Positions 22,467 to 60,139 of a DNA stretch of 64,000 nucleotides are shown here, in pieces. The notes under the pieces are model-generated. The model did no database searches. It had not been told where the DNA came from and worked only from the letters and a program-made list of their open reading frames with translations. Made by a program: the position numbers and the translations under genes. The stretch lies in the IMG/VR virus record IMGVR_UViG_3300027759_000043; one strand, 5' to 3'. Position 1 is the first letter of the stretch. Each line of letters opens with the position of its first letter. Source of the stretch: a virus (Duplodnaviria; Caudoviricetes).

Positions 22467-22495
22467 TTGCATTTTCCAACGCAATCAATTAAAAT
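22467..22495 (+). promoter_or_regulatory. sigma70-type promoter of uvsW (leaderless spacing)
   Basis: TTGCAT-N17-TAAAAT, 7 nt before ATG 22503. Confidence 0.55.
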
Positions 22496-22502
22496 ACACA
22501 CA

Positions 22503-23972
22503 ATGAAAAGATGTACAATACAGATTAAGGACGAAGTCAACATCCGACTAGAGGGACTAGATTTAGATGTGCGTCGATCCTTGGTCACGGCTTTTAAATA
22601 TGATGTACCTTATGCTAGATATCTTCCAGCAGTTCGTTTAGGACGTTGGGACGGCAAGATCAGTTACTTCCAATTAGGCGGTAGTACTTACACAAACTTG
22701 CTACCCGAGATTATTCCCATATTAGAAAAGTTTGATTACGATATTGAACTGGATGATCAAAGAGATTACTCGACTACCTTTGCATTTGAACAAGTGCGTG
22801 AGGATTCATTTGCACATGTGAAGTGGCCCAAGGGACATCCTGCCGCAGGTGAGTCCATTATGATGCGAGACTATCAAGTTGATATTGTGAACAACTTCCT
22901 GGCCAATCCACAATGCTTGCAAGAAGTGGCCACAGGTGCAGGCAAAACTATCATGACAGCGGCGTTGTCAAATGCAGTGGCACCATATGGACGCTCAATC
23001 GTTATTGTGCCCAACAAGAGTTTGGTGACACAAACAGAAAAAGACTACATCAACATGGAGCAAGATGTGGGTGTGTTCTTTGGAGATAGAAAAGAGTATG
23101 GACGCACACATACCATTTGCACTTGGCAAAGTTTGAATGTGCTGTTAAAGAACACCAAGTCGGGTGTGGGTGACTGCACTATTGGTGAATTCTTGGAAGG
23201 TGTGGTGTGCGTTATTGTAGACGAAGTACACATGGCCAAAGCAGATGCACTCAAAACCTTGCTAACAGGCGTGATGGCTAGAGTGCCGATTCGATGGGGT
23301 TTGACTGGAACCATACCCAAGGAGAAGTTTGAGAGTCAGGCGTTGCTGGTGGGACTGGGTCCTGTTATTGGACGCTTGAGCGCCAACGAACTGCAACAGC
23401 AAGGGGTATTGGCCAACTGTCATGTGAACATTGTGCAGTTGGTTGATCACGTGGAGTATAAAGAGTATCAATCGGAACTTAAATACTTGCTTGAAGAGTC
23501 AGGCCGATTGGACACCATGGCTGAACTGATCCGTAAGGTAAATGAAACAGGTAACACACTGGTGCTTGTGGATCGAGTGGCCGCAGGACATGCTCTAGTA
23601 GAACGGCTGGGTGATCGTGCTGTTTTTGTAAGCGGTGCGACCAAAGCAAAAGATAGACAAGATGAATATGATGAAGTTGCAGACAGCGTTGATAAGATTA
23701 TTGTGGCTACCTATGGTGTTGCCGCTGTGGGTATTAATATCCCTAGGATTTTTAATTTGGTTCTTATTGAACCCGGCAAAAGTTTTGTCCGTGTTATTCA
23801 AAGTATTGGACGAGGCATAAGAAAAGCCGAAGACAAAGATCATGTGCAAATTTGGGACATTACTAGTACCTGCAAGTTTGCCAAAAGACACCTAACCAAA
23901 CGCAAACAGTTTTATAAAGAAGCCAACTATCCATTCAGTTCAGAAAAACTAGAGTGGATGAAAATCGCTTGA
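22503..23972 (+). CDS. uvsW: UvsW-like SF2 DNA helicase
   Basis: RDYQ, ATGAGKT, DEVH, GLTGT, ATYGVAAVGINIP, QSIGRGIR. Confidence 0.92.
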   Translation: MKRCTIQIKDEVNIRLEGLDLDVRRSLVTAFKYDVPYARYLPAVRLGRWDGKISYFQLGGSTYTNLLPEIIPILEKFDYDIELDDQRDYSTTFAFEQVREDSFAHVKWPKGHPAAGESIMMRDYQVDIVNNFLANPQCLQEVATGAGKTIMTAALSNAVAPYGRSIVIVPNKSLVTQTEKDYINMEQDVGVFFGDRKEYGRTHTICTWQSLNVLLKNTKSGVGDCTIGEFLEGVVCVIVDEVHMAKADALKTLLTGVMARVPIRWGLTGTIPKEKFESQALLVGLGPVIGRLSANELQQQGVLANCHVNIVQLVDHVEYKEYQSELKYLLEESGRLDTMAELIRKVNETGNTLVLVDRVAAGHALVERLGDRAVFVSGATKAKDRQDEYDEVADSVDKIIVATYGVAAVGINIPRIFNLVLIEPGKSFVRVIQSIGRGIRKAEDKDHVQIWDITSTCKFAKRHLTKRKQFYKEANYPFSSEKLEWMKIA

Positions 23973-25258: not shown

Positions 25259-25983
25259 CACCTAATAGACTGGTTGTAAATGGTTGTAGTTATATGGCGT
25301 ACTATGACCGCGGCGGCGGTACACAAGATCTTGCCTCATGTCTAGGAATACCAACGTCAGAAAATCTTTCGATGAATTCAGCATGTAATAGTAGAATTAT
25401 AAGAACCACACTAAGAGACAGTTACAAAACATTAGTTCCTACACTTTATATAATCGGTATTACTTTTTTGACTAGGTACGAGTTGCCAACACGTTTAGAA
25501 AGAGACAATGAGGATGGTAAATGGAGGTCGTTAAATTCTGGTTTATCTTCTTCCACAACGTCAAGTTTTGAACCTGAATTTGATAAGCATTTTACAGTTC
25601 AAGACTTGATAGAGTATTCTGCTCTTTGGGATAAATTTACCACGCTGGGAATAGAGGATCTTGCGGTGAACTTGCAATATCAGTTGTTGAGCCTACGTGA
25701 TAGTCTGCACTATCGAGGACACAGATGTGTGATATTTAATACTGCTGAACATGTGTTGGATTGGGTAATTGACAACAAATCATTTGATTTATTAAAATCA
25801 AACAAACAATTTGTTCAGAGACTTAAATGGAAAAGTATACCTTGGCAATTTGAACAAGGCGCAGACTTTTATCCAGGTGACGAAAAACATCCAGCAGATT
25901 CTAGACATGTTGCATTAGGACAACATCAATGGTTGAATAAATTTTTAGTTGACTATATCAATCAAAACGGTATTTTAGAATGA
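25255..25983 (+). CDS. SGNH/GDSL-like protein
   Basis: NGCSY (block I-like), N.RIIRTT; AT-rich insert overlapping both neighbours. Confidence 0.45.
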   Translation: MTPNRLVVNGCSYMAYYDRGGGTQDLASCLGIPTSENLSMNSACNSRIIRTTLRDSYKTLVPTLYIIGITFLTRYELPTRLERDNEDGKWRSLNSGLSSSTTSSFEPEFDKHFTVQDLIEYSALWDKFTTLGIEDLAVNLQYQLLSLRDSLHYRGHRCVIFNTAEHVLDWVIDNKSFDLLKSNKQFVQRLKWKSIPWQFEQGADFYPGDEKHPADSRHVALGQHQWLNKFLVDYINQNGILE

Positions 25984-26654
25984 CATTCACGTGTGAGTAT
26001 TGTAAGAAAACATTTGCTAGAGAAACAAGCATAGCAGTTCACATGTGTGAGCCCAAGCGCAGACGTCTTAGCAAGGATGAAGCAGGTGTGCGCCTGGGAT
26101 TTCAGGCCTACATCAAGTTTTACGAAACCATGCAAGGCTCGGCAAAAAACAAAACACATGATGACTTTTGTGACTCGCCGTATTACAGAGCATTTGTCAA
26201 GTTTGGAAACTATTGTGTAAACACTCATGTGATTGCCCCGGCAAGATTCATGACATGGTTGTTAAAAGCACAAAAGAAAATTGATCACTGGTGCAGTGAC
26301 AAGATCTATACAGAATATCTCGTAGAATACCTACGTGTGGAAGCAGTGGACGATGCCTTGGCCCGTGCAATTGAACACAGCATGAGATGGGCAGAGGAAA
26401 CAGGCAATCCCGCACATGACTGGATGCGCTATGGCAATACCAATAGTCTATGTTATGCTGTCACAGCAGGACGCATTTCGCCCTGGGTGATCTACAATAG
26501 TGAATCAGGACAAAAGTTCTTGAGTGAACTCTCAACAGAACAAGTGGCCATGGTGTGGCCCTATATCGACTCAGATGCCTGGCAAAAAAAGTTTGCTAAC
26601 TATCCAGCAGATAAAGAGTATGCCAAAGAAATATTGAAACAAGCAGGATGGTAA
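25980..26654 (+). CDS. Replication-region protein with N-terminal C2H2-type Zn finger
   Basis: CEYCKKTFARETSIAVHMC. Confidence 0.65.
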   Translation: MTFTCEYCKKTFARETSIAVHMCEPKRRRLSKDEAGVRLGFQAYIKFYETMQGSAKNKTHDDFCDSPYYRAFVKFGNYCVNTHVIAPARFMTWLLKAQKKIDHWCSDKIYTEYLVEYLRVEAVDDALARAIEHSMRWAEETGNPAHDWMRYGNTNSLCYAVTAGRISPWVIYNSESGQKFLSELSTEQVAMVWPYIDSDAWQKKFANYPADKEYAKEILKQAGW

Positions 26655-26655
26655 C

Positions 26656-27012
26656 ATGATCAAAGCAATTCACACCAGTGGAAAGTACATACAAGTAATA
26701 GGCGGCAGTGCCAGCACCTATGTAAGTGCTCAACCCGGTTCACAGGGTGTTGGTAACTTACGATTCAACACCAGTGCTCAGCGTCTTGAAGTTTATGATG
26801 GTATGACTTGGTTGGAACTAAACATGCCACATACCAGTGTAGGACTCAATGGGGCGGCCGAGGAAGCCATTGATTGGGTACAACAACAAATGGCGGAAGA
26901 AAAAAGGCTTGCGGCGTTAGCAAAAGAACATCCTGCTGTGGCAGATGCACTTGAAGCAGTTGAGCAAGCACAGGAACGAGTACGTATTGTGGCCGCATTG
27001 GTGCAAGAATGA
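26656..27012 (+). CDS. Hypothetical protein
   Basis: LRFNT..RLEVYDG..W motif plus C-terminal coiled coil. Confidence 0.65.
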   Translation: MIKAIHTSGKYIQVIGGSASTYVSAQPGSQGVGNLRFNTSAQRLEVYDGMTWLELNMPHTSVGLNGAAEEAIDWVQQQMAEEKRLAALAKEHPAVADALEAVEQAQERVRIVAALVQE

Positions 27013-27569
27013 GCGCAGACATTGATTTAGATTTTGCTGACAGAGAATCAGTGCTGAAACTGATTCGGCATACTCCGGCACGGCAAAGCAATGGTAGGCG
27101 ACACAACTCGGGTGTGTACGTTACTGATATACCAAGAGATCCGTTTAATAACTGTGCGGCTTTGGATTATGAAACTGCTGAACAGCGTGGATACTTCAAA
27201 CTAGACTTCTTGAACATGAGTGTGTATCAGTTGGTTCGTGATCCCTCACACTATGAGGCAATGTTGACTGCAACACCACCTTGGGAACGACTGTGGACTG
27301 ATCGCGAGTGGGCCCGGCAGTTGGTACACGTGGGCAACTATACAGATTTACTAAAAGTAATGAAGCCAGATTCAATACCCAGGATGGCGGCTTTTATATC
27401 TATTATTCGTCCGGGCAAGGCGCATTTACAGACACGTTCATGGGCAGAAGTATTTGCTGGTGTATGGGATGGAGATGATTCACAAGGCTACACATTCAAG
27501 AAGAGTCATAGTATTTCTTATGCGGCTCTAGTGGCTTTGCATATGAATCTGCTTAATCAACCCGCCTAA
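27009..27569 (+). CDS. Miniature DnaE (C-family DNA polymerase III alpha) catalytic-core homolog
   Basis: ADIDLDF, HNSGVYV, GYFKLDFL, IIRPG and FKKSHSISY are colinear with DnaE PDxDxDF, HAxGVV, KxDFL, RPG and FNKSHAxAY. Confidence 0.8.
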   Translation: MSADIDLDFADRESVLKLIRHTPARQSNGRRHNSGVYVTDIPRDPFNNCAALDYETAEQRGYFKLDFLNMSVYQLVRDPSHYEAMLTATPPWERLWTDREWARQLVHVGNYTDLLKVMKPDSIPRMAAFISIIRPGKAHLQTRSWAEVFAGVWDGDDSQGYTFKKSHSISYAALVALHMNLLNQPA

Positions 27570-27939
27570 CGAGTGTAATACTCTTTCTTTTGCTCTTCTT
27601 GCGAGCAATGTCGTTTAAACTGCATATTGGGCCATGCAGAATCTCTAGATCTTTGTTGGCAAATGTTCGCAATGTAGGACGGAACGGATCCCATTCTCCA
27701 CGCAGGAATATATTGATGGGTATACTTCTATTGCTTTCCCACCACCAGGTGTTGGCTAAATCTATAAATCTGCGCTTGGCATCCTGGTCTGTAACAGCAC
27801 CAAAGTCGTAGATGGTGGTAATTGCATCATCACGATTTTGTACTATGCCCACATATTCGTTACTGGCATACATGCACAAGGTTATAAACGGATATTTGTC
27901 TGCTAATTTTTGAAATAAGTCACTGCCCATAAGTTTCAT
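27553..27939 (-). CDS. Hypothetical protein
   Basis: 128-aa ORF with TATAAATA 6 nt upstream. Confidence 0.75.
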   Translation of the reverse strand: MKLMGSDLFQKLADKYPFITLCMYASNEYVGIVQNRDDAITTIYDFGAVTDQDAKRRFIDLANTWWWESNRSIPINIFLRGEWDPFRPTLRTFANKDLEILHGPICSLNDIARKKSKRKSITLVRRVD

Positions 27940-29805: not shown

Positions 29806-30795
29806 ATGCTTGATATACTGCAATATTTGCCTGCAAAACGACGACCCAGTCCACAAGGCTGGTTGAGTTTCAATGCGGTGTGTTGCGCCCATAATGGTAA
29901 TAGTCAGGACAAGCGCGGGCGTGGTGGGATCAAGGTAACTGAACAAGATTGGAGTTATCATTGCTTCAATTGCAGTTACACAGCCAGTTTTGTTCTAGGA
30001 CGCACAGTGGGTTTCAAAGCCCGAAGATTATTGAGTTGGATGGGTGTGCCCGATAACGAGATTGAAATGCTTAATCTTGAAAGTCTGCGGCATCGTAGCA
30101 TACACGGTATACTTGAAGATAGACAACGAGTATTCAATGCACTAAGTGCTATTGAGTTTGAAGAGTCAGATGACTTCCCACCTTTCTCTGAAGTGGTTAC
30201 ACCAGAAGTTCCTTACTATTGGAACTACATTCGTCGACGCGGTGTGCCAGAAGACTTCCCCATCATGACTTCTATCAAGAACGATGGCGTTCATTGGGTT
30301 AGGCCGTTTGTGTTAGTACCGTTCACATATGACAACAAGGTAGTAGGCTGGACTGCTAGATTTTTAGATGACAAACAACCCAAGTACATCAATCACTCAC
30401 AACCCGGTTATGTATTTGGCACAGACTTGCAACATGCTGACTGGCAACATGTGCTGGTGATGGAAGGCATCTTTGATGCACTTTCAATTGGTGGGCTTGC
30501 TGTGATGCACAACACCATCAGTGACAGCCAAGCAAGATTGATTCGCAGTCTTGGACGTGAAGTAACTGTGGTACCTGATCAAGATACAGCAGGTGTGGAG
30601 TTAATTGACCGTGCTGTAGAACTGGGCTGGGCCGTGAGCATACCTGAGTGGCCAGCGGGTTGCAAAGATGTTAATGACGCTGTGATAAAACTAGGCAGAC
30701 TAGGCACCTTGCTAACTATTATGTCAGCAAGAGAAACTAGTAAGATTAAAATAGAAATAAGGAAGAAGCAACTTGTTAAAAGAATACGGACTTGA
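29806..30795 (+). CDS. gp61: DNA primase (gp61-like, Zn-binding + TOPRIM)
   Basis: CCAH...HCFNC; VMEGIFDA; VVPDQD; KDVND. Confidence 0.9.
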   Translation: MLDILQYLPAKRRPSPQGWLSFNAVCCAHNGNSQDKRGRGGIKVTEQDWSYHCFNCSYTASFVLGRTVGFKARRLLSWMGVPDNEIEMLNLESLRHRSIHGILEDRQRVFNALSAIEFEESDDFPPFSEVVTPEVPYYWNYIRRRGVPEDFPIMTSIKNDGVHWVRPFVLVPFTYDNKVVGWTARFLDDKQPKYINHSQPGYVFGTDLQHADWQHVLVMEGIFDALSIGGLAVMHNTISDSQARLIRSLGREVTVVPDQDTAGVELIDRAVELGWAVSIPEWPAGCKDVNDAVIKLGRLGTLLTIMSARETSKIKIEIRKKQLVKRIRT

Positions 30796-32218
30796 TGTCC
30801 AAAGACTATTTCTAGAAATGATGTTGGAAGACGCAACAAGTTATGTGCGTGTTCAAAACATCTATAACCCACAGAACTTTGACAAAAGTTTGAGACCTGC
30901 GGCTGAGTTCATCAAAGAACACTCAGACAAACACAAGACCATGCCTGACAGGCAGCAGATTTCAGCGACCACGGGTGTTCGACTTGCACCAGTGCCGGAT
31001 TTGAATGAAGGACACTTTGACTGGTTCATGGGCGAGTTTGAAGCATTTACCCGACGTCAAGAACTTGAACGTGCTATTTTGAAATCGGCGGACTTGCTGG
31101 AAAAGGGCGAATTTGAGCCAGTGGAGAAACTGATCAAAGATGCAGTACAGATATCACTTACTAAAGACATGGGCACGGATTACTTTGCTGATCCCAAGGC
31201 TCGCATTGAGAAATACTTTAACTCGGGCGGCCAAGTAAGCACAGGTTGGCCACAACTGGATAGATTGTTGTACGGCGGATTCAGCCGTGGCGAACTAAAC
31301 ATTTTTGCCGGCGGTTCAGGTTCTGGCAAGAGTCTCGTGATGATGAACATTGCGCTAAACTGGTTGCAACAAGGACTTAGCGGTGTTTATATTACATTAG
31401 AATTGAGTGAAGAACTTACAAGTTTGAGAACTGATGCTATGTTAACAAACATGAGCACCAAAGACATTAGACGTGACATGGACACAACTGAACTTAAGGT
31501 CAAACTAGTAGCCAAGAAGTCCGGTAACTATCAGGTCAAGGGCTTGCCAGCACAGAGCAACATCAATGACATTCGCGCTTACTTGAAAGAGTATCAAATT
31601 CAGACAGGCAAGAAAGTAGACTTTGTGATGATTGACTACTTGGACTTGCTGATGCCAGTCAGTGCCAAAGTCAGTCCCAATGACTTGTTTGTTAAAGACA
31701 AGTATGTGAGTGAAGAATTGCGTAACTTGGCCAAAGAATTAGCAGTACTGATGGTTACTGCATCACAGTTGAATAGATCGGCTGTGGAAGAAGTTGAATT
31801 TGATCACTCGCATATTTCAGGTGGTATATCCAAGATCAATACTGCTGATAACGTGTTTGGTATCTTTACTAGCAGAGCAATGAAAGAGCGTGGCAAGTAT
31901 CAAATACAATGTATGAAGTCGCGCAGTTCAACAGGTGTTGGACAAAAGATTGATCTTGAATACAACATTGAAACCATGCGTATCACAGATGAAGGTGGTG
32001 ACGAAAAAGACAACTTCCGTGGAGGTGCCAAGCCCAGTATCATGGATTCAATCAAGGCCAAGAGTCAAGTTAAAACTGCCGAAGAAGGTGAATCTAGCAC
32101 ACCACCCTGGGAACGTGCCAAGCCTCGAGAAGACTTTGATCTAGAAGCACCCAAAGTCACTGCTGATGTGCAAAGTGCAAAATTAAAACAATTGCTGGGG
32201 CAAATTAAACAATCGTAA
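30773..32218 (+). CDS. gp41: Replicative DnaB-type helicase (gp41-like)
   Basis: STGW..LD, GGSGSGKS, TLELSE, IDYLDL, TASQLNR, KSR; TTG start. Confidence 0.92.
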   Translation: MLKEYGLDVQRLFLEMMLEDATSYVRVQNIYNPQNFDKSLRPAAEFIKEHSDKHKTMPDRQQISATTGVRLAPVPDLNEGHFDWFMGEFEAFTRRQELERAILKSADLLEKGEFEPVEKLIKDAVQISLTKDMGTDYFADPKARIEKYFNSGGQVSTGWPQLDRLLYGGFSRGELNIFAGGSGSGKSLVMMNIALNWLQQGLSGVYITLELSEELTSLRTDAMLTNMSTKDIRRDMDTTELKVKLVAKKSGNYQVKGLPAQSNINDIRAYLKEYQIQTGKKVDFVMIDYLDLLMPVSAKVSPNDLFVKDKYVSEELRNLAKELAVLMVTASQLNRSAVEEVEFDHSHISGGISKINTADNVFGIFTSRAMKERGKYQIQCMKSRSSTGVGQKIDLEYNIETMRITDEGGDEKDNFRGGAKPSIMDSIKAKSQVKTAEEGESSTPPWERAKPREDFDLEAPKVTADVQSAKLKQLLGQIKQS

Positions 32219-32292
32219 TATACATTGTTAATTGTGTCAATGGTTTGTCTAAAACTAATAACCGATAAATAAATCAAAGGCCACTGATAGTA

Positions 32293-32541
32293 ATGCAAAA
32301 ACGCACCCGTAGTTTGTTAGAAGAATTAGACTCAATGTATGTTGAGCGTGAGCGCCATCTAGTGATAGAAAGCCGTGCAAGCAACGTAATAGCCAGTGCT
32401 ATCAATCTGCTGGAACAAATTGACGCCACTTTTCCGCCTGAACAAGCAGAAAATCTAACTCGTAAATTGCTCAATGCTATTCGCACTAGAGATGCTGGCC
32501 GTTTTGAAAGAACAGTGAGACGTACCCATGCAGATTCATGA
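32293..32541 (+). CDS. Small late hypothetical protein
   Basis: TAAATA upstream; heads the virion-gene operon. Confidence 0.7.
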   Translation: MQKRTRSLLEELDSMYVERERHLVIESRASNVIASAINLLEQIDATFPPEQAENLTRKLLNAIRTRDAGRFERTVRRTHADS

Positions 32542-33415
32542 ACTAACCAAACGACAACTCAACGAAGTCAACATAGCAGGCCCTGGCGGTCTGGTGAACC
32601 GAGCGCAAACTGCATATCAAGCCGCAAAACAACCGGGTGCATTGGGCAGTCTAGTTAAATCTCAGCAGGCTGCACCTCCGGGTTCTAATCTATGGCAACG
32701 TGCAAAAACAGCCCTGGCATCCAATCCGCTGACCAGTTCATCGGCCCTGGCTCGCAGCCAATTTTCACAGGCACAATATGCCCAACGTACTGCGGCACAA
32801 GGAACACAAGTTGCAAAAAATCTTCAGAACAATTGGTTACAGTGGGAACAGTATTTGGCACAGACTTCGGGCATTCCCGCATTACCTCCTGCGCAGTATC
32901 GACAAACACTAGAAGATTGGTTTAAAAAGAAGGCCGTACCTGACACATATGATGCTGAGGATTTTTTAGACCCGACTGAAAACACTTTGGCCAATGCAAT
33001 CAAACAAACATTAGATCTAATAGCCGACGCCGCAGAAAAAAGCGATGCCACGGCCATGGAGAGAGAGTTTAAAGAATTGACAACGCTAATTCAACAATCA
33101 GCACAAGGTTTAACCAGCAAAGATGAGCAAGCAAAGTTAGCGGCTAGAGCACAATACAAACAAGCACAGCGCCAGGCGCAAGCCACTGGTGCCGCACAGC
33201 CACAAACCCAACAGCCACAAACCCAACAGCCACAGCAACAGGCACCCGTGGTAACGCCTGCTACGATAACACAAACTCTACAACAGTTTGGACTCAAACC
33301 CGGAACAAACTTGCAAAATTTTATACCACAAATGGTAGGTGCTGCCACAGTAGGATCAACAGGCAATGCCAACGCTGATAATCTACTCAAAGCCTTGGGA
33401 TTACAAGTACAATGA
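32528..33415 (+). CDS. Probable head-internal protein
   Basis: N-terminus MQIHEL..QLNE; Gln/Ala-rich. Confidence 0.55.
   Translation: MQIHELTKRQLNEVNIAGPGGLVNRAQTAYQAAKQPGALGSLVKSQQAAPPGSNLWQRAKTALASNPLTSSSALARSQFSQAQYAQRTAAQGTQVAKNLQNNWLQWEQYLAQTSGIPALPPAQYRQTLEDWFKKKAVPDTYDAEDFLDPTENTLANAIKQTLDLIADAAEKSDATAMEREFKELTTLIQQSAQGLTSKDEQAKLAARAQYKQAQRQAQATGAAQPQTQQPQTQQPQQQAPVVTPATITQTLQQFGLKPGTNLQNFIPQMVGAATVGSTGNANADNLLKALGLQVQ
33197..33241 (+). repeat. 15-nt tandem repeat (QPQTQ linker)
   Basis: CAGCCACAAACCCAA x2 plus a degenerate third copy. Confidence 0.85.
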
Positions 33416-35337
33416 ACTTATTTGAAGGTGGCAACGTATTTAAAGATGCTGACGGCAAACCACTCACACAACGCATCAATCAGACTGATGTGCCCAGTAC
33501 AGTAACATGGCTGGAACAACTCACAGGTCTAGAGTTTCCACGTGAACGTTGGTTGGGATCAACAGGCAAAGCACCCACATCAGGTGACTTGGATCTAGCA
33601 GTTGATGCCAGTAAAATCTCCAAAGAACAACTGGCCGCCAAGTTAGAAGCCTGGGCTCGTAGTCACGGTGAGGATCCTAGGAACTGGGTCAAGAAGTCGG
33701 GCGAAGTACACCTGCGTACTCCCATCACCGGCAGACCTGAACTTGGCTACGTACAAACAGACTTTATGTTTTTCCCCGACCTGGATTGGGGTACATTCTA
33801 CTATAATCAAACATTCCCAAGTGCCTACAAAGGCATGCATCGTGCTGTGCTAATGAGTAGCATAGCCAAACAACTGGGTCTCAAGATAGGTGCTAATGGC
33901 ATGTTCAGTCGTGCCACTAACAAATTGGTTAGTCAAGATCCTGACTACGTTGCCAAAGCCATACTAGGACCCAAAGCCACTCGAGAAGATCTGGGCAATG
34001 TAGAAAGCATTTATGCATTCCTGGCACGTGACAAAGACCGTGATGCCAAACTCCGAGACTTCCGTGATCAATTGGCACGTGACGGACTCAAAGAACCCAC
34101 ACAATTGGAAGAAAGCGGCGACGTTTACTTCTTGGCACGCCTACGTGATCGCATTGTGAACCAAGGCATGTATGCCTTGGTAGAGGCAGCCGCACCTCCA
34201 GCCGCTGCCGCACCTGTGGGTGGCAAAGCCAAGGGCATTGAGCACCTGGAAGATTACATATTTAGAAATGGCACAGCCGGTGTCAAGACAGCCCTGGCCA
34301 TTGTGGACAACTTCAAGGAAGATCCCAAGACTGCAAGCGTCAAATGGGACGGCAAGCCTGCTGTGGTATTTGGTCGCAAGCCCAGCACAGGCGAATTTGT
34401 ACTGACAGATGGATCAGGATTTGAGGCTGTGGGCTATGATGGCTTGTTTACCAGTCCCCAGGCCATTGAGGCCAACATGGCACAACGTGATGCCAGTGCC
34501 GCTGCCAAGGGCAACGTGGCCAACAGAGTTGAAACACTGTTACCAGTGTATCAAGGCATTTGGCCCTATCTTGAAGCCGCAACCCCTGAAAACTTCCGTG
34601 GTTATGTCAAGGGCGACTTGTTGTATACTACCACACCTCCTGTGGTAGCAGGCAATGTAGAATTCAAACCCAACACAGTGGAATATCGTATTCCTGTAAA
34701 AAGCAAACTAGGCACAGCAATTGCCGACAGTGACGTTGGTGTGGCAGTACACACCATGTATGCGGATGCTGGTGCTGCCAAACAACCTCTCAGCAGAGTC
34801 AAATTTAACCCTGTGCCGGGCCTGTTGTTGATTGAACCCATCTATGCTCGACCTGTGGAAATAGAAAATCCCTACGTAAAGAAAATCAAGAGTCTATTAC
34901 GAACAATGGGTCCTGCAATTGACACATTGTTCAACCCTGCAGAACTACGTGCTGCCAAGATCACTGATTTGGCCAAATTATGCGTAGATTATATCAACAA
35001 ACGTATCAATCCCGAATACCCTGCCTACACCGGAGACTTCTCAGACTTAGTGCCGGGCTTCATGAACTACTTGAAATCCACACAAACTCCGCAAAAGTTT
35101 CGCAACATTACAGAATACCTGCGTAGTCCTACTTCAAACGAGGGCGCACTGGCCGGTGCCTTTGTGTTGTTTGAATTGTTACACGATCTCAAACTGGACT
35201 TGCTGGGTAAACTGGATGCACAAGTTCCTGGCAACGAGGGATGGGTGTTTGCAACGCCAGCAGGCTATGGTAAAGCAGTAAATCGTTTTGATTTTACAGC
35301 CAGAAACCGCCAAAGAAACAACCCCACAACCACCTAA
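33412..35337 (+). CDS. Fusion of a Pol-beta-like nucleotidyltransferase and an ATP-dependent ligase-like (KxDG) domain; probable virion protein
   Basis: GS49-50..D59xD61..D117; then SVKWDG, KGD, NEGWVF, KAVNR. Confidence 0.7.
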   Translation: MNLFEGGNVFKDADGKPLTQRINQTDVPSTVTWLEQLTGLEFPRERWLGSTGKAPTSGDLDLAVDASKISKEQLAAKLEAWARSHGEDPRNWVKKSGEVHLRTPITGRPELGYVQTDFMFFPDLDWGTFYYNQTFPSAYKGMHRAVLMSSIAKQLGLKIGANGMFSRATNKLVSQDPDYVAKAILGPKATREDLGNVESIYAFLARDKDRDAKLRDFRDQLARDGLKEPTQLEESGDVYFLARLRDRIVNQGMYALVEAAAPPAAAAPVGGKAKGIEHLEDYIFRNGTAGVKTALAIVDNFKEDPKTASVKWDGKPAVVFGRKPSTGEFVLTDGSGFEAVGYDGLFTSPQAIEANMAQRDASAAAKGNVANRVETLLPVYQGIWPYLEAATPENFRGYVKGDLLYTTTPPVVAGNVEFKPNTVEYRIPVKSKLGTAIADSDVGVAVHTMYADAGAAKQPLSRVKFNPVPGLLLIEPIYARPVEIENPYVKKIKSLLRTMGPAIDTLFNPAELRAAKITDLAKLCVDYINKRINPEYPAYTGDFSDLVPGFMNYLKSTQTPQKFRNITEYLRSPTSNEGALAGAFVLFELLHDLKLDLLGKLDAQVPGNEGWVFATPAGYGKAVNRFDFTARNRQRNNPTTT

Positions 35338-41733: not shown

Positions 41734-44049
41734 ATGAAGCAAATTACAGTACAAAAACGCAGTGGTCGCCGCGAGCCGCTAGCGTTGGAAAAATGGCAGG
41801 CACAGATAGCCAAGGTATGTGCAGGCATAGCAGACGTGAGCCAGAGCATGATTGAGATCAAGGCACAACTGCATTTTTATGATGGCATTACAACTAACGA
41901 AATTGATGGTATCACATTACGAGCAATAGTGGACTTGATTGACGTAGAATCAAATCCCGACGTTGGACACACCAACTATCAATATGTAGCAGGCAAACAA
42001 CGACTATCAATGTTGCGTAAAGATGTCTACGGATCATATGATCCTCCCCACTTGTATGAGATTGTAAAGAAGAATGTGGCCACTGGCCTATACACTCCTG
42101 AACTGCTGGAGTGGTACAGTGAAGACGACTGGAATCGTATGGAAGACATGATTGATCATGCCAAGGACGAACAGTACTCATATGCGGCGGTGGAACAACT
42201 GATTGAAAAGTATCTTGTGCGTAACAGAAGCACAAAAGAAATTTATGAAACGCCACAAGTGCGTTACATGATTGCGGCTGCTACGGTGTTCCACAAGGAA
42301 GAACCCAACACAGCCCGTATGCGTTACATAAAGGAATACTACAATGCCGCAAGTGATGGATTGTTTACCCTTGCTACTCCCGTCCTTGCTGGTCTCGGTA
42401 CCCCTACTAAGCAATTCAGTTCGTGCGTACTCATTCGCAGTGATGATGACCTGGATAGTATTTTTGCTAGTGGCGAGATGATGGCCAAGTATGCCAGCAA
42501 GCGAGCAGGCATTGGTTTAGAAATTGGACGCTTACGTCCGCTAGGTTCGCCCATACGTGGCGGCGAAATCATGCACACCGGCATGATACCATTTTTAAAG
42601 AAGTGGTTCGGAGATTTACGCTCATGCTCACAAGGAGGTATTCGCAATGCAAGTGCTACTGTATTTTATCCCATTTGGCATCATCAGTTTGATGATCTTA
42701 TCGTTCTTAAGAACAATCAAGGAACAGAAGAAACCCGTGTCCGGCACATGGACTATGGGGTTGTTCTTTCCGCATTTTTCTGGAGGCGATTCAAGAATAA
42801 AGAAAACATAACTTTCTTTGATCCCAACCAAGTACCTGAACTGTACGAAGCGTTCTATGCCAACACCGAACGTTTTGAAAAACTCTATGTGGAATACGAA
42901 AAGCGTCGGGACCTGCGCACTAAGACCATGAGTGCTGAAGAAGTATTCAAGTCAGGCATACTCAAAGAGCGCACTGACACAGGACGTATCTATCTTGTGT
43001 TTATTGACAATGTTCAGAATCAAGGACCGTTTGATACTGAATATCACACCATTTACCAGAGTAACCTTTGCTGTGAAATCTTACTTCCTACAAAACCTTT
43101 TAAACGCTTGGACGACGCCGAAGGCCGAATCGCTTTATGTACTCTTGGATCGATCAACTGGGGTGCGTTTCGCAATCCTGAAGACATGCGTCGTGCTTGC
43201 AGAATTCTGCAACGCAGTCTCTGTAACATTCTCGACTACCAAGACTTCCTGTCGATCCAGAGTCAGTTATCAAATGACGAAATTCAGCCGCTTGGTATCG
43301 GCATTACTAACCTTGCTTACTGGCATGCCAAGCGAGGACTGCAATATGGTAACAAAGACGCTCTTGGAGAGGTCAAATCTTGGATGGAACACCAGGCCTT
43401 CTATCTTACCGAAGCAACAGTTGAACTTGCTAAAGAAAGAGGCCGTTGCAAAGATTCTGACCGCACCTGGTACGGTCGTGGTATTTTTCCTTGGGAACGC
43501 CGTGCCAAAGGCGTAAATGAATTAACGGACTTCTCTCCTGAACTAAACTGGGAAGGCCTACGTGCCGAAATGAGATCATATGGTGTTCGTAATGCTACCT
43601 TGATGGCTATTGCACCTGTTGAAAGTTCTAGTGTAGTAATCAATTCAACCAATGGCATTGAAATGCCTATGTCACTTATTTCAGTTAAGGAAAGCAAAGC
43701 AGGTTCCCTTACACAAGTTGTCCCTGAGTATCATAAACTCAAGAACAAGTATCAAATGATGTGGGCGCAGAAAGACTGTGATGGTTATTTAAAAACAGCG
43801 GCTGTATTAGCGGCCTACGTTGATCAGAGTATCAGTACTAACACATTCTATAATCCAGCACACTTTGCTGATCGTAAAGTTCCCACAACATTGATTGCTC
43901 GGAACTTGATGCAAGCACACCACTGGGGATTGAAAACATTCTACTACAGCCTGATCAACAAAGCAGGATCAAAACAAACTGCCGAAGCGGCACCTCTTGA
44001 GGTCATTGACTTTGATCTTGAGGAAGACTGCGAAGCCTGCAAGTTATGA
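41734..44049 (+). CDS. nrdA: Ribonucleotide reductase class Ia alpha subunit
   Basis: ATP cone, FSSC, SNLCCE, ALCTL, LGIG, APVESSS, TFYY, terminal CEAC. Confidence 0.97.
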   Translation: MKQITVQKRSGRREPLALEKWQAQIAKVCAGIADVSQSMIEIKAQLHFYDGITTNEIDGITLRAIVDLIDVESNPDVGHTNYQYVAGKQRLSMLRKDVYGSYDPPHLYEIVKKNVATGLYTPELLEWYSEDDWNRMEDMIDHAKDEQYSYAAVEQLIEKYLVRNRSTKEIYETPQVRYMIAAATVFHKEEPNTARMRYIKEYYNAASDGLFTLATPVLAGLGTPTKQFSSCVLIRSDDDLDSIFASGEMMAKYASKRAGIGLEIGRLRPLGSPIRGGEIMHTGMIPFLKKWFGDLRSCSQGGIRNASATVFYPIWHHQFDDLIVLKNNQGTEETRVRHMDYGVVLSAFFWRRFKNKENITFFDPNQVPELYEAFYANTERFEKLYVEYEKRRDLRTKTMSAEEVFKSGILKERTDTGRIYLVFIDNVQNQGPFDTEYHTIYQSNLCCEILLPTKPFKRLDDAEGRIALCTLGSINWGAFRNPEDMRRACRILQRSLCNILDYQDFLSIQSQLSNDEIQPLGIGITNLAYWHAKRGLQYGNKDALGEVKSWMEHQAFYLTEATVELAKERGRCKDSDRTWYGRGIFPWERRAKGVNELTDFSPELNWEGLRAEMRSYGVRNATLMAIAPVESSSVVINSTNGIEMPMSLISVKESKAGSLTQVVPEYHKLKNKYQMMWAQKDCDGYLKTAAVLAAYVDQSISTNTFYNPAHFADRKVPTTLIARNLMQAHHWGLKTFYYSLINKAGSKQTAEAAPLEVIDFDLEEDCEACKL

Positions 44050-52472: not shown

Positions 52473-53846
52473 ATGAATGAAACTGATTTCTCCAACGAAA
52501 GGTTTGACGGTGTAATGGCCGCAGGCTGGATACGTGATCTAGAAAGTTCAGACAGTCGCATACACAAAGAAAAAACAATTGAAAAAGCACTAATGGCCGC
52601 CAAGTTGGGCAGTGCCGATGCACAATGTTTTCTCTTTAACTGCTACCAGGCTTACAATCCTTTCTATACTTTTAATATCCGTCAAGTGCCTGAAACAGAG
52701 GGCTTAACCGGACGGCCTAACCCTTGGGTAAGTTTTTGGGCCTTGCTAGAAGCCCTGCGTACCCGATACATCACAGGTAATCGTGCCAGGGAAGCCATTG
52801 AACAAATGAGCCAAGAGTTTGACAGTGACGAGTGGAACAACTTGGCTCGTAGAGTCATGATCAAAGATCTGCGTTGTGGCATTTCAGAAAAAACACTAAA
52901 CAAAGTCTTGGGCAAAACCGAATACCGGATTCCTGTGTTTACTTGTCAGTTGGCACAGGACTCCACAGACCAACCCAAGAAACTCAAAGGCATCAAGCGC
53001 CTAGAAGTCAAACTGGATGGTGTACGTGTGTTGGCAGTAATTGATGGCGACAATATTACCCTGTTCAGTCGCAATGGCAAAGAGTTTGAGAACTTTCCAC
53101 AGATTGCAGATGCCATTGAAGATGCCCGCAAGCACTTTCAATTTGGACGTGGCACAGGCGGTCGCTTTGTGTTAGATGGTGAGATTGTGGGTGAAAGTTT
53201 CCAGAAACTCATGAAGCAGGCACATCGCAAGAGTGATGCTAAGACTGAAGGCATGGTATATCATATTTTTGATATACTTCCATTAGAGTCATTGCAAGAA
53301 GGCCATTGTAACATACAACAGTACAAACGTATTGAGTGGATTGAGAGTGCAAAAGATCGTCTTAAAGATACACCTTGTCTGCGAATCATGAATGGCTTGG
53401 AAGTAGACCTAGATACCGCTGAAGGGCATGACATCATGCAACGATTTGCCGAAGCGTCGGTAGCAGAAGGCTTTGAAGGCATCATGATCAAGAGTATGGA
53501 CGCACCTTATGAGTGCAAACGCTCAGACTTCTGGATGAAATGGAAACCCACTATTAGTGTTGATCTCAATATTGTGGGTTTTGAACAAGGTACTGGTCGC
53601 AATGCAGACCGGTTGGGTGCTATAATTTGTGAAGGAACAGATAATGACCGTAGAATTCGTGTTAATGTTGGTAGTGGGTTTAGTGATACTCTTCGTGATG
53701 AGTATTGGGCCAATAGGGATCAGTTACTTGGTCACTTGGTTGAAGTCCAAGCGGACGCAGTTACCCAAAACCAAGACGGAACCTACAGTCTCCGATTCCC
53801 AAGGTTCTTGAGATTTAGAGATTTTGAGGCCGGAGAAAAAGTTTGA
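52473..53846 (+). CDS. lig: ATP-dependent DNA ligase
   Basis: EVKLDGVR, LDGE, FDI, EGIMIK, WMKWKP, SLRFPRF. Confidence 0.95.
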   Translation: MNETDFSNERFDGVMAAGWIRDLESSDSRIHKEKTIEKALMAAKLGSADAQCFLFNCYQAYNPFYTFNIRQVPETEGLTGRPNPWVSFWALLEALRTRYITGNRAREAIEQMSQEFDSDEWNNLARRVMIKDLRCGISEKTLNKVLGKTEYRIPVFTCQLAQDSTDQPKKLKGIKRLEVKLDGVRVLAVIDGDNITLFSRNGKEFENFPQIADAIEDARKHFQFGRGTGGRFVLDGEIVGESFQKLMKQAHRKSDAKTEGMVYHIFDILPLESLQEGHCNIQQYKRIEWIESAKDRLKDTPCLRIMNGLEVDLDTAEGHDIMQRFAEASVAEGFEGIMIKSMDAPYECKRSDFWMKWKPTISVDLNIVGFEQGTGRNADRLGAIICEGTDNDRRIRVNVGSGFSDTLRDEYWANRDQLLGHLVEVQADAVTQNQDGTYSLRFPRFLRFRDFEAGEKV

Positions 53847-57359: not shown

Positions 57360-58931
57360 ATGATATTTGGTTTCAGCATCCTGGCCACAGCAATCTTACT
57401 CAGTTGTGTGGCCGCTTATTACTCTGTGGCAGGTCTTACCGCCATCTTCTCCGCGGCAACCATCCCTGTGATCATCATGGGTGGCAGCCTCGAACTTGGC
57501 AAGATTGTGGCCACTGTTTGGTTGCACAACAATTGGCGACGTGCTGGATTCCTGTTCAAAGCATATCTAGTGCCTGCGGTGGCATTCCTAATGTTACTGA
57601 CATCAATGGGAATTTTTGGCTATCTCTCCAAGGCCCATTCAGATCAAAGTCTAGTTTCAGGCGATGCAGTAGCAAAAGTAGCAATCTATGATGAAAAGAT
57701 CAAAATATCTCGTGACAATATTGAAGCCGACCGCAAGGCACTTAAACAGATGGATGAGGCTGTGGACCAAGTTATGGGCCGATCAGCAGATGAAAAAGGT
57801 GCCGACAAAGCAGTTGCAATACGAAGAGGCCAGCAACGAGAACGGGCTAGGATACTTGCTGACATCGAAACCGAACAGAAAAAGATTACTAATCTTAATG
57901 AAGAGCGGGCACCACTAGCGGCCGAGTTCCGCAAGGTTGAAAGCGAAGTTGGGCCTATCAAATACATTGCCGCACTTGTATATGGAGACAATCCTGACTC
58001 TAATGTGCTAGAGCGAGCAGTACGTTTAGTAATCATTATGATTGTGTTGGTATTTGACCCACTGGCCTTGACTTTGATCCTGGCAGCCAACAAACAATTT
58101 CAATGGGCCAGAGAAGGCACCGGAGGCTTTGTGCATGACGAGCCCCGGTACGAGCCTGATAATGGTCCGCTAACTGAAAATCAAATTGAACAACTAAAAG
58201 AATCAGTGCCAGAGCCGCCTGATGATCCTATACCTTGTTACAAGTGTGGTACCTCGTTAGTTGACGCTCCGGGTATTGGACTGTTCTGCCCCAACAAAGA
58301 ATGTGACGTTATAGATAATGTCAAAGGTGAGGAACCTGTTGAATTTGAATCAATTGAAATTGAATACAAGTTTTTAGACGAACATCATGAACCTGATCTC
58401 CATGTATACGATGATGAACGCTTGGTATCAAAATTTGACAAGATGCAAAATTTAGAACGACCAGGAGACTACATAACACCACCTGACGAGACTGATGCAG
58501 AAAAAGAAGCCAAGCGGCTGTGGAAAGCCGAACACCCTGATGGAACTGTAAAAGAACAAAGAAGATTGCACGAAGTAGGCGCCATAGACACATTACCGTG
58601 GCAGGGCTATATCAATCTTCAAGCAGACAATGATGGTAGTATTTCAAGTACCGGTCGATTGCTGGGCTTTGGTATCAAGTTCCCAGAGAATCCAGCCAAA
58701 GGTGATTCATTTATTAGGGTAGATCAAATGCCCAGTGCCCTGTACAAATACAATGGCACCAAGTGGATTGAGGTTGACAAAGGGCTCAGTGACCAGTATG
58801 CTTATGACACGGCCTATATTGATCATTTGATTGAAAAACTCACTACCGGTGAGTATGATCCTGAATTATTAAACGAAGCAGAAAGAGAACAAGTGGCACA
58901 ACGCTTACAAACCAACACAAAAGGTGCATGA
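57360..58931 (+). CDS. Membrane-anchored coiled-coil protein with a Zn ribbon and acidic C-terminal region
   Basis: N-terminal TMs, long heptads, further TM, CYKC...CPNKEC. Confidence 0.75.
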   Translation: MIFGFSILATAILLSCVAAYYSVAGLTAIFSAATIPVIIMGGSLELGKIVATVWLHNNWRRAGFLFKAYLVPAVAFLMLLTSMGIFGYLSKAHSDQSLVSGDAVAKVAIYDEKIKISRDNIEADRKALKQMDEAVDQVMGRSADEKGADKAVAIRRGQQRERARILADIETEQKKITNLNEERAPLAAEFRKVESEVGPIKYIAALVYGDNPDSNVLERAVRLVIIMIVLVFDPLALTLILAANKQFQWAREGTGGFVHDEPRYEPDNGPLTENQIEQLKESVPEPPDDPIPCYKCGTSLVDAPGIGLFCPNKECDVIDNVKGEEPVEFESIEIEYKFLDEHHEPDLHVYDDERLVSKFDKMQNLERPGDYITPPDETDAEKEAKRLWKAEHPDGTVKEQRRLHEVGAIDTLPWQGYINLQADNDGSISSTGRLLGFGIKFPENPAKGDSFIRVDQMPSALYKYNGTKWIEVDKGLSDQYAYDTAYIDHLIEKLTTGEYDPELLNEAEREQVAQRLQTNTKGA

Positions 58932-60139
58932 TGGCATCAGATTTACACAACACCTGCAGTTTCTGCGGCAAGCACAAAGACTCGGTAAAAAAACTCATAG
59001 TAGGCGAAAAAGTAGGCATTTGTAATGAGTGCGTGGATTTTTGTCAAGGCTTGTTAATTGACGAAACCCCTCAAGACAGCACAACTGCTCCAGTAACCCC
59101 TAGAAAACTAGATCCTGTTGTACTCAAAGAATATTTAGATCAGTACGTGATTGGACAAGACTCGGCCAAGATCATGTTGAGTGTGGCCATTGTGAATCAC
59201 TACAAACGTATCAACAAGACCACAAACGAACCTGAACTAGAAAAAGCCAATGTGCTTATGTTGGGGCCTACAGGTTCGGGCAAGACCTTGTTGGCCAAGA
59301 GTGTGGCACGTTATCTTGATGTACCATTTGCTATTGCTGATGCCACTAGTATTACAGAAGCAGGCTATGTGGGCGATGATGTGGAAAGTCTTATCACAAG
59401 ATTGTATACTGCGGCTGATGGTGACATAAACAGAACACAACGTGGCATTATTTTTGTGGACGAGATTGACAAAATTGCTCGCAAAGGTGAGAGTGCCAGT
59501 ATCACTAGAGATGTGTCAGGTGAAGGAGTACAACAGGCCTTGCTCAAGATGGTAGAAGGTACTGTGTGTCGTATACCAGCAGGTGGCGGCCGGAAACACC
59601 CATCAGGGGACATGATTGAAATCAACACACGCAACATCTTGTTTATTGCAGGTGGTGCATTTGTGGGCCTGGATTCAATTGTTAAAAATCGTGTGCAAGG
59701 TACCAGTATCGGCTTTGGTGCCAAGGTAGAAAGCGATGCAGACACTAACCTTGCACTTACCACACCTGACGACTTGGTCAAGTATGGAATGATTCCAGAA
59801 TTTGTGGGACGTTTTCCTAACTGGGTTGGTCTACAAGAACTTTCTAAATCAGATCTAGTACACATTCTTACTGGTGTAAAAAACAACTTTGTTGATCAAT
59901 ATAAATGGTTGTTTGCTGAAGATGGTGTAGAGTTACAGTTTACAGACCCAGCATTGGATACTATTGCTGAACGAACTCTACTTAGCAAAACAGGTGCTCG
60001 AGGACTGCACAGCGAACTAGAACGTGTGCTGATGCCACACATGTACAACCTCAAACGCTACCCTGGCATGGGAATAAAGTGCGTGGAAATTGGCCCTGCT
60101 TTGGTAAATATTCCTATAGCACTAGAGGGCACAAATTGA
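58928..60139 (+). CDS. clpX: ClpX AAA+ unfoldase
   Basis: CSFCGK...CNEC Zn domain, [20 protein letters not shown] loop, GARGL. Confidence 0.97.

Follow-up and report, generated by a model that had tools for sequence, protein, structure and literature searches.

The window analyzed here is a 64-kb stretch of DNA from a caudoviricete virus (IMG/VR record IMGVR_UViG_3300027759_000043). On its plus strand, 27009..27569 is occupied by an ORF of 186 aa with an ATG start and a TAA stop, the ATG of which overlaps the TGA of the preceding ORF (26656..27012) in an ATGA at 27009-27012. Its product is probably the C-terminal, Mg2+/template-binding unit (C-unit) of a split minimal DNA polymerase III (Pol III) alpha, the other half of which (N-unit) would be encoded by a separate gene. 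The gene and its surroundings are as follows:

22467..23972 (+), UvsW-like SF2 helicase, start of the conserved syntenic block (Pfam ResIII/Helicase_C/UvsW_N; phrog_16)
25980..26654 (+), 224-aa neighbour of family phrog_11058 (PHROG E 6e-55) with a weak N-terminal C2H2-like zinc finger
26656..27012 (+), 118-aa lineage-specific ORF immediately upstream, ATGA-coupled to the C-unit gene (weak PHROG matches only)
27009..27569 (+), putative C-unit of a split minimal Pol III alpha (phrog_11778, fold and dN/dS)
27553..27939 (-), convergent 128-aa ORF of family phrog_11637 (PHROG E 2e-32)
29806..30795 (+), DnaG/T4 gp61-like primase with a Toprim domain (Pfam Toprim_2; phrog_47, E 3e-32)
30773..32218 (+), DnaB-like replicative helicase (Pfam DnaB_C, E 4e-22; phrog_19, E 8e-71)

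The intact start and stop codons and the ATGA coupling agree with the initial annotation of this DNA, in which the upstream gene had also been taken for a gp62-like subunit. The latter assignment could not be retained, because ORF 26656..27012 has no Pfam match and only weak PHROG matches, all to families of unknown function, and a homologue at the same position was found in none of six related genomes. The 224-aa protein adjoins the C-unit in all six genomes compared (its Pfam zf-C2H2 match, E 0.003, falls below the cut-off), and the convergent ORF, the 3' end of which overlaps that of the C-unit gene by 17 nt, keeps its position and orientation in 6/6. These two flanking proteins could be accessory factors of the mini-polymerase. 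The primase and helicase genes, previously described as neighbours, are real, but they are separated from the C-unit gene, on its downstream side, by 2.2 kb and three ORFs. The syntenic order of the whole block is UvsW-like helicase, small ORFs, 224-aa protein, C-unit, convergent small ORF, structural gene, primase, and DnaB, and the order of UvsW-like helicase, primase, and DnaB matches that in Phosso, Paride, and PBECO4. With its T4-like replication genes in conserved synteny, the genomic context of the C-unit fits a group 2.2 jumbo phage.

Several other features of the region were also observed. Genes for the large subunit of a class I ribonucleotide reductase with an ATP-cone (41734-44049), an ATP-dependent DNA ligase (52473-53846), and a ClpX-like AAA+ ATPase (58928-60139) belong to the nucleotide metabolism and replication genes that T4-like jumbo phages typically carry. 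About 6 kb from the C-unit, a gene at 33412-35337 (+) encodes a 641-aa protein, the C-terminal 360 residues of which match Pfam DUF6267 (E 1e-26). Throughout its length the window is matched in colinear order by a 130-kb IMG/VR contig, G001, with nucleotide identities of 80-89%. The primase and DnaB genes overlap in the window, unlike in G001, where an additional ~1.8 kb (minus strand of L096:12927-14796, corresponding to ~30770-30790 in the window) separates them and contains three ORFs of 282, 191, and 167 aa without Pfam matches. In a 334.9-kb relative, two radical-SAM genes are located directly 3' of DnaB (L006:15214-17418), and none is present at ~32218-32293 of the window.

Family, selection, and catalytic core

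The C-unit matched the PHROG family phrog_11778 ('DNA polymerase', 197 positions) with an E value of 7.1e-51 (residues 3-183 versus profile positions 7-192) and, weakly, positions 579-694 of the 1190-position DnaE-like profile phrog_405. By tblastn, it was detected in 96 phage records, all of which are Rak2/PA5oct/Atu_ph07-type jumbo phages and all at less than 60% identity; the top match was Sinorhizobium phage Phosso (42.5%, annotated as 'DnaE-like DNA polymerase III alpha'), and other identities were 40% for PA5oct-like phages, 39% for Atu_ph07, and 38% for PBECO4/121Q-like phages. No match of the window to known phages was found at the nucleotide level. Metagenomic C-units fall into 5,993 clusters at 90% identity and 362 clusters at 50% identity, and IMG/VR contains 80 contigs with copies 82-92% identical to that of the window; one close relative is carried by a 334.9-kb contig. 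In all of these 80 close relatives the C-unit ORF is intact from ATG to stop (183-192 aa), and dN/dS against the window copy has a median of 0.074 and a maximum of 0.14, which rules out a decayed fragment, as the initial annotation had already argued.

Thus, the C-unit gene is real, intact, and strongly conserved, and it is a divergent member of an already described family. The novelty implied earlier is lost: in 2021, Iyer et al. (PMC7824862) described by computation a minimal Pol III alpha split in this way, which occurs in group 2.2 (Rak2/PBECO4/PA5oct/Atu_ph07-like) jumbo phages alongside a family B polymerase, and proposed it as a model of an ancestral Pol III module; in addition, 'DnaE-like DNA polymerase III alpha' is the name given to the C-unit family in several GenBank records. 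In the Atu_ph07 paper, a 'Pol III alpha' (gp316) is listed beside the B-family polymerases gp276/gp277. We found no experimental or biochemical report on either the N-unit or the C-unit in the literature.

No Pfam family, and hence no DnaE domain, was detected in the C-unit at E <= 1, and a PDB search with its single sequence returned only noise. Because both searches were uninformative, a family profile was needed, and alignment A1 of 77 sequences (the query and 76 clusters) was used. Against the PDB, this profile retrieved Pol III alpha chains only (E. coli 2HNH, E 3e-6; Thermus 2HPI; M. tuberculosis 5LEW), with profile positions 54-140 corresponding to E. coli 538-641 and positions 151-182 to 739-771. 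The following elements of the C-unit could be mapped onto E. coli DnaE:

27018..27032 (+), D4-I-D6-L-D8, first catalytic strand, equivalent to E. coli D401/D403 (Mg2+ ligands) and D405 (motif alignment)
27102..27116 (+), H32-N-S-G35-V36, equivalent to E. coli HAGGV 511-515 (motif positions)
27198..27206 (+), K64-L-D66, equivalent to E. coli K553-F-D555 with the third catalytic Asp (HMMER profile alignment to 2HNH, E. coli DnaE)
27408..27416 (+), R134-P135-G136, equivalent to E. coli R639-P640-G641 in the fingers (profile alignment)
27495..27509 (+), F163-K-K-S166-H167, equivalent to E. coli F756-N-K-S759-H760, steric-gate helix (profile alignment)

All five motifs are arranged in DnaE order, as they had been listed in the initial annotation, which took D6, D8, and D66 for the catalytic aspartates. 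D6 and D66 are upheld, whereas D8 is not: when A3-D4-I-D6-L-D8-F9 is aligned with the E. coli motif PDFDVDF (400-406, P400 first), the pair becomes D4/D6 and D8 falls on the DnaE-specific D405. In E. coli, D401, D403, and D555 are Mg2+ ligands that are conserved throughout the C-family, and the Asp at 405 is a conserved feature of DnaE, PolC having Asn there (PMC3919608). The Asp found at this position (D8) marks the C-unit, at the sequence level, as DnaE-like and not PolC-like. In A1, K64, D66, R134, and P135 are invariant and D4, D6, D8, H32, G35, K164, and H167 are each at least 90% conserved; since this conservation extends over 76 clusters that are only 27-65% identical to the query, the motifs are not a matter of chance. 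Among the 81 close copies, D4, D6, D8, K64, D66, R134, G136, and H167 are all retained in 81/81. E. coli H760 is the steric gate that excludes rNTPs, with a role for S759/H760 (PMC8485763), and its counterpart H167, present in every close relative, points to the use of dNTPs.

Considering the extreme reduction of the protein, and that the clamp- and tau-binding regions are absent so that any interaction surface would be novel, the C-unit might be regarded as a catalytically inert remnant with a structural or regulatory function, acting, for example, as an adaptor in the replisome or as a decoy that engages partners of the host Pol III. We find this scarcely credible, since a pseudo-enzyme is unlikely to keep all catalytic ligands and the steric gate invariant in hundreds of clusters at a dN/dS of 0.07.

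The reduction itself can be localized by the same alignment. Only 23 residues separate D8 from H32, compared with 105 between the E. coli equivalents, and because of this difference the approximately 82 residues missing between D405 and H511 are identified with a deleted thumb; a further ~88 residues are missing between G641 and F756, and everything after ~781 is absent, the C-unit ending 19 residues past the steric-gate His. Spanning only E. coli ~399-781, it is devoid of PHP, thumb, most of the fingers, clamp-binding, and OB regions, which is in accordance with the original reading.

Structure comparison placed the C-unit among the same enzymes. Its AlphaFold (AF2) model has a pLDDT of 96 and a pTM of 0.88, and the top 14 PDB matches in Foldseek are all Pol III alpha. 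With VIA-align, a Foldseek-independent aligner, the top seven of 48,161 chains are all C-family polymerases (Z 9.8-7.4, with 180-183 of 186 residues aligned), including PolC 3F2B (Z 9.8, 183 residues), 5LEW (9.3), 2HPI (9.1), and E. coli 5M1S (7.4, residues 399-781). The next-best chain has a Z of 4.2; above this value the model matches C-family polymerases only, consistent with the DnaE palm suspected in the initial annotation. The confident AlphaFold prediction for the C-unit alone is compatible with autonomous folding.

The N-terminal unit and a natural fusion

Atu_ph07 gp316 (177 aa, phrog_11127) terminates in the DnaE 'GRGS...ERFL' segment and matches positions 361-435 of the DnaE-like profile. 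When an HMM was built from 125 N-units, its match in E. coli DnaE covered residues 320-392 (E 2e-10), with G361-R-G-S364 among them, and in E. coli numbering the C-unit begins seven residues past the end of the N-unit. At least 7,290 proteins of approximately 170-180 aa belong to the N-unit family, with PF07733 in every member among those listed; the family carries the GRGS triphosphate-binding motif that is absent from the C-unit. When organism counts for both units were compared among phage records, they proved nearly identical: 34/34 for Escherichia, 11/11 for Pseudomonas, 11/10 for Klebsiella, 8/8 for Salmonella, 8/8 for Erwinia, and 4/4 for Xanthomonas. In each of three complete uncultured genomes (328-360 kb), a single N-unit and a single C-unit occur beside one full-length family B polymerase, and no full-length DnaE was found. 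The 1:1 ratio holds for cultured jumbo phages as well, and a family B polymerase always accompanies the pair. The two genes are ~32-98 kb apart in these three genomes; the spacing is ~32-44 kb in most relatives, ~98 kb in G004, and ~182 kb in Atu_ph07, and among the first 80 IMG/VR N-unit loci, no C-unit was seen in flanking DNA of up to 10 kb. As a separate observation, the N-unit is located among late/structural genes and the C-unit among replication genes; in PA5oct, CBB, 121Q, and Vibrio phage 2.275.O (L089-L092) its conserved neighbourhood has a small ORF on either side of the N-unit, preceded by the gene for a large structural protein and followed by that for a GroES-like co-chaperonin.

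A word-based search for longer relatives yielded no fused or full-length ones, and an exhaustive search recovered a sole fusion, P0184, which is seen on a single 2.4-kb contig only. In this 375-aa protein, residues 8-180 match the N-unit HMM (E 3e-38) and are followed by a linker of ~10 residues and then the C-unit; PF07733 runs unbroken over the junction (residues 97-207), covering only the first ~20 residues of the C-part. The model of the fusion (pLDDT 90, pTM 0.86) matches DnaE/PolC structures with Z scores of 21.7 (5LEW, 327 residues), 19.2, 18.0, and 15.6, ranging down to 12.2, and its top 19 Foldseek matches are all C-family. Thus, the presence of the N-unit approximately doubles the DnaE match, from Z 9.8 for the C-unit to 21.7 for the fusion. 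A second tier (Z <=4.5) comprises ANT(2''), CCA-adding enzymes, MenT, poly(A) polymerase, and Pol beta, and these Pol-beta-superfamily nucleotidyltransferases align to residues ~105-280 of the model, straddling the junction at 180-190. Because nucleotidyltransferase folds align across the N/C junction, the split cuts through the minimal catalytic fold. The natural fusion provides structural evidence that the two genes may rebuild one active site, and its model suggests that one DnaE palm is reconstituted from the two units; we regard this evidence as supportive rather than decisive.

The partner gene of the window lineage was sought in the window and in related contigs. The N-unit HMM had no match in the 64-kb window or in the colinear 130-kb G001, whose sequence reaches 51 kb to the upstream side of the C-unit and 78 kb to the downstream side. 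G001, which covers the window, also gave no match to a family B polymerase (PF00136) and has no GroES neighbourhood. Of 156 IMG/VR N-unit loci obtained in two scans, none could be tied to the window lineage by nucleotide overlap, synteny, or composition, the best correlation of tetranucleotide composition being r 0.855 versus 0.90-0.97 within G001. Judging from G001, the partner N-unit gene would be at a distance from the C-unit of over 78 kb if downstream and over 51 kb if upstream, farther than in most relatives.

The initial annotation had favoured a stand-alone minimal nucleotidyltransferase or polymerase, in which the 186-aa protein extends primers or adds nucleotides by itself. The C-unit does keep the three Mg2+-ligand aspartates and the steric-gate helix, is modelled at pLDDT 96 on its own, and has no partner gene in the 130-kb colinear relative of this lineage. 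However, the GRGS loop, the first strand, and the helix of the Pol-beta-like core are found in the co-occurring N-unit, which is encoded by a separate gene; matches to generic nucleotidyltransferase folds are confined to the part of the fusion that spans the N/C junction; the DnaE match stays at Z 9.8 without the N-unit, compared with 21.7 with it; and the two units occur 1:1 in all complete genomes examined. An enzyme acting alone is therefore very unlikely, and what fits the separate, co-occurring N-unit family is the alternative that the annotation had listed last, namely one piece of a split polymerase.

Proposed assembly and function

We consider it likely that the C-unit is one half of a two-gene minimal Pol III alpha, both as regards its identity and its assembly from two subunits; a specific role, such as short distributive synthesis or primer extension, is proposed with less confidence. 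In this two-gene enzyme, the C-unit would supply the second half of a Pol-beta-like palm, with the D4/D6 strand and the K64/D66 strand, together with a shortened fingers module that includes RPG and the steric-gate helix (S166-H167). The first strand of the palm, the GRGS loop, and the helix after it would come from the N-unit (~170-180 aa, encoded far away in the genome). The two units probably assemble non-covalently, without splicing, into one active site of ~355 aa. Most likely, the enzyme would assist the family B replicase by template-directed DNA synthesis over short stretches and in a distributive manner, for example, extending primase-made primers or filling gaps. Such an auxiliary role is suggested because the Mg2+ ligands and the dNTP-selecting His have been kept while the thumb, PHP, (HhH)2, clamp-binding, and OB parts are absent, and the idea of primer extension is based solely on the neighbourhood, that is, on the conserved place of the gene in the helicase-primase block. 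Given the absence of thumb and DNA-binding modules, it is uncertain whether the two units together have polymerase activity.

It might also be that the pair is a template-independent nucleotidyltransferase, either a terminal transferase or an enzyme of nucleotide signalling or counter-defence. The loss of all the DNA-binding modules (thumb, (HhH)2, clamp-binding, and OB) would be in line with such an activity, relatives already possess a full family B replicase, and the second-tier structural neighbours are non-templated nucleotidyltransferases. However, the fingers segments that have been retained position the incoming dNTP in DnaE (PMC8485763) and H167 is nearly invariant, the closest folds are, by a wide margin, replicative C-family polymerases, and the gene has its conserved place among helicase and primase genes. 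We thus regard non-templated synthesis as improbable and prefer the two-gene Pol III alpha engaged in auxiliary, template-directed synthesis.

A more far-reaching form of the two-gene reading is that the N- and C-units constitute an active, non-covalent C-family polymerase of ~355 aa, by far the smallest known, which performs Pol alpha-like primer extension and hands off to the family B replicase. This form is rather doubtful. If true, it would represent a Pol alpha-like division of labour that arose from a bacterial-type catalytic core beside a primase-helicase. In any case, the family illustrates the limit to which a C-family core can be reduced, even split through its catalytic fold, under strong selection, and both unit families are very abundant in metagenomes (~6,000 C-unit and >7,000 N-unit clusters at 90% identity).

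Comparison with known systems

The finding in this window brings no new kind of system. The C-units of Phosso (XYS97594.1), PBECO4 (YP_009150802.1), and Paride (WPK40247.1) share with it the length class, the DxD start, the motifs, and the synteny, and its 186 aa fit a family defined by ~180-220 aa, a DxD start, and three Mg2+-ligand aspartates. The window copy is merely 38-43% identical to the C-unit of any cultured phage; it comes from an abundant uncultured lineage and adds to the family a well-sampled freshwater-type lineage as well as the residue-level map onto E. coli DnaE.

Compared with E. coli DnaE1 (1160 aa; 2HNH, 5M1S), the C-unit has about one sixth of the length and shares the palm/fingers core at ~399-781, from which fingers residues 642-738 are absent together with the PHP and thumb domains and the parts following ~781, namely (HhH)2, clamp-binding, OB, and tau-binding. 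The first half of the palm, with GRGS, belongs to the same polypeptide in E. coli but to a separate one in the phage. With respect to canonical C-family replicases in general (DnaE/PolC), the C-unit shares the catalytic triad (D4/D6/D66) and the steric gate (H167) and differs in the absence of PHP, thumb, (HhH)2, the clamp motif, and the OB domain, with neither Pfam DNA_pol3_alpha (PF07733) nor any other DnaE domain above threshold. PolC of Firmicutes, which also has a reduced thumb (PMC3919608), is the best structural match of the C-unit alone (3F2B, Z 9.8, 183 residues). It has Asn at the equivalent of E. coli D405, where the phage C-unit has the DnaE signature Asp (D8).

A C-family polymerase encoded by two distant genes is also found in cyanobacteria, whose DnaE-n and DnaE-c are split by an intein and joined by protein trans-splicing. 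For the phage proteins, intein trans-splicing can be ruled out, as only three residues precede the DxD strand of the C-unit and N-units end with EFL(K/R)-stop. Unlike the cyanobacterial halves, the phage units are without an intein, their natural fusion is colinear with a linker of ~10 residues, and the break lies inside the palm. Because joining through an intein is not possible, the two phage units would have to assemble non-covalently, in contrast to the spliced DnaE of cyanobacteria.
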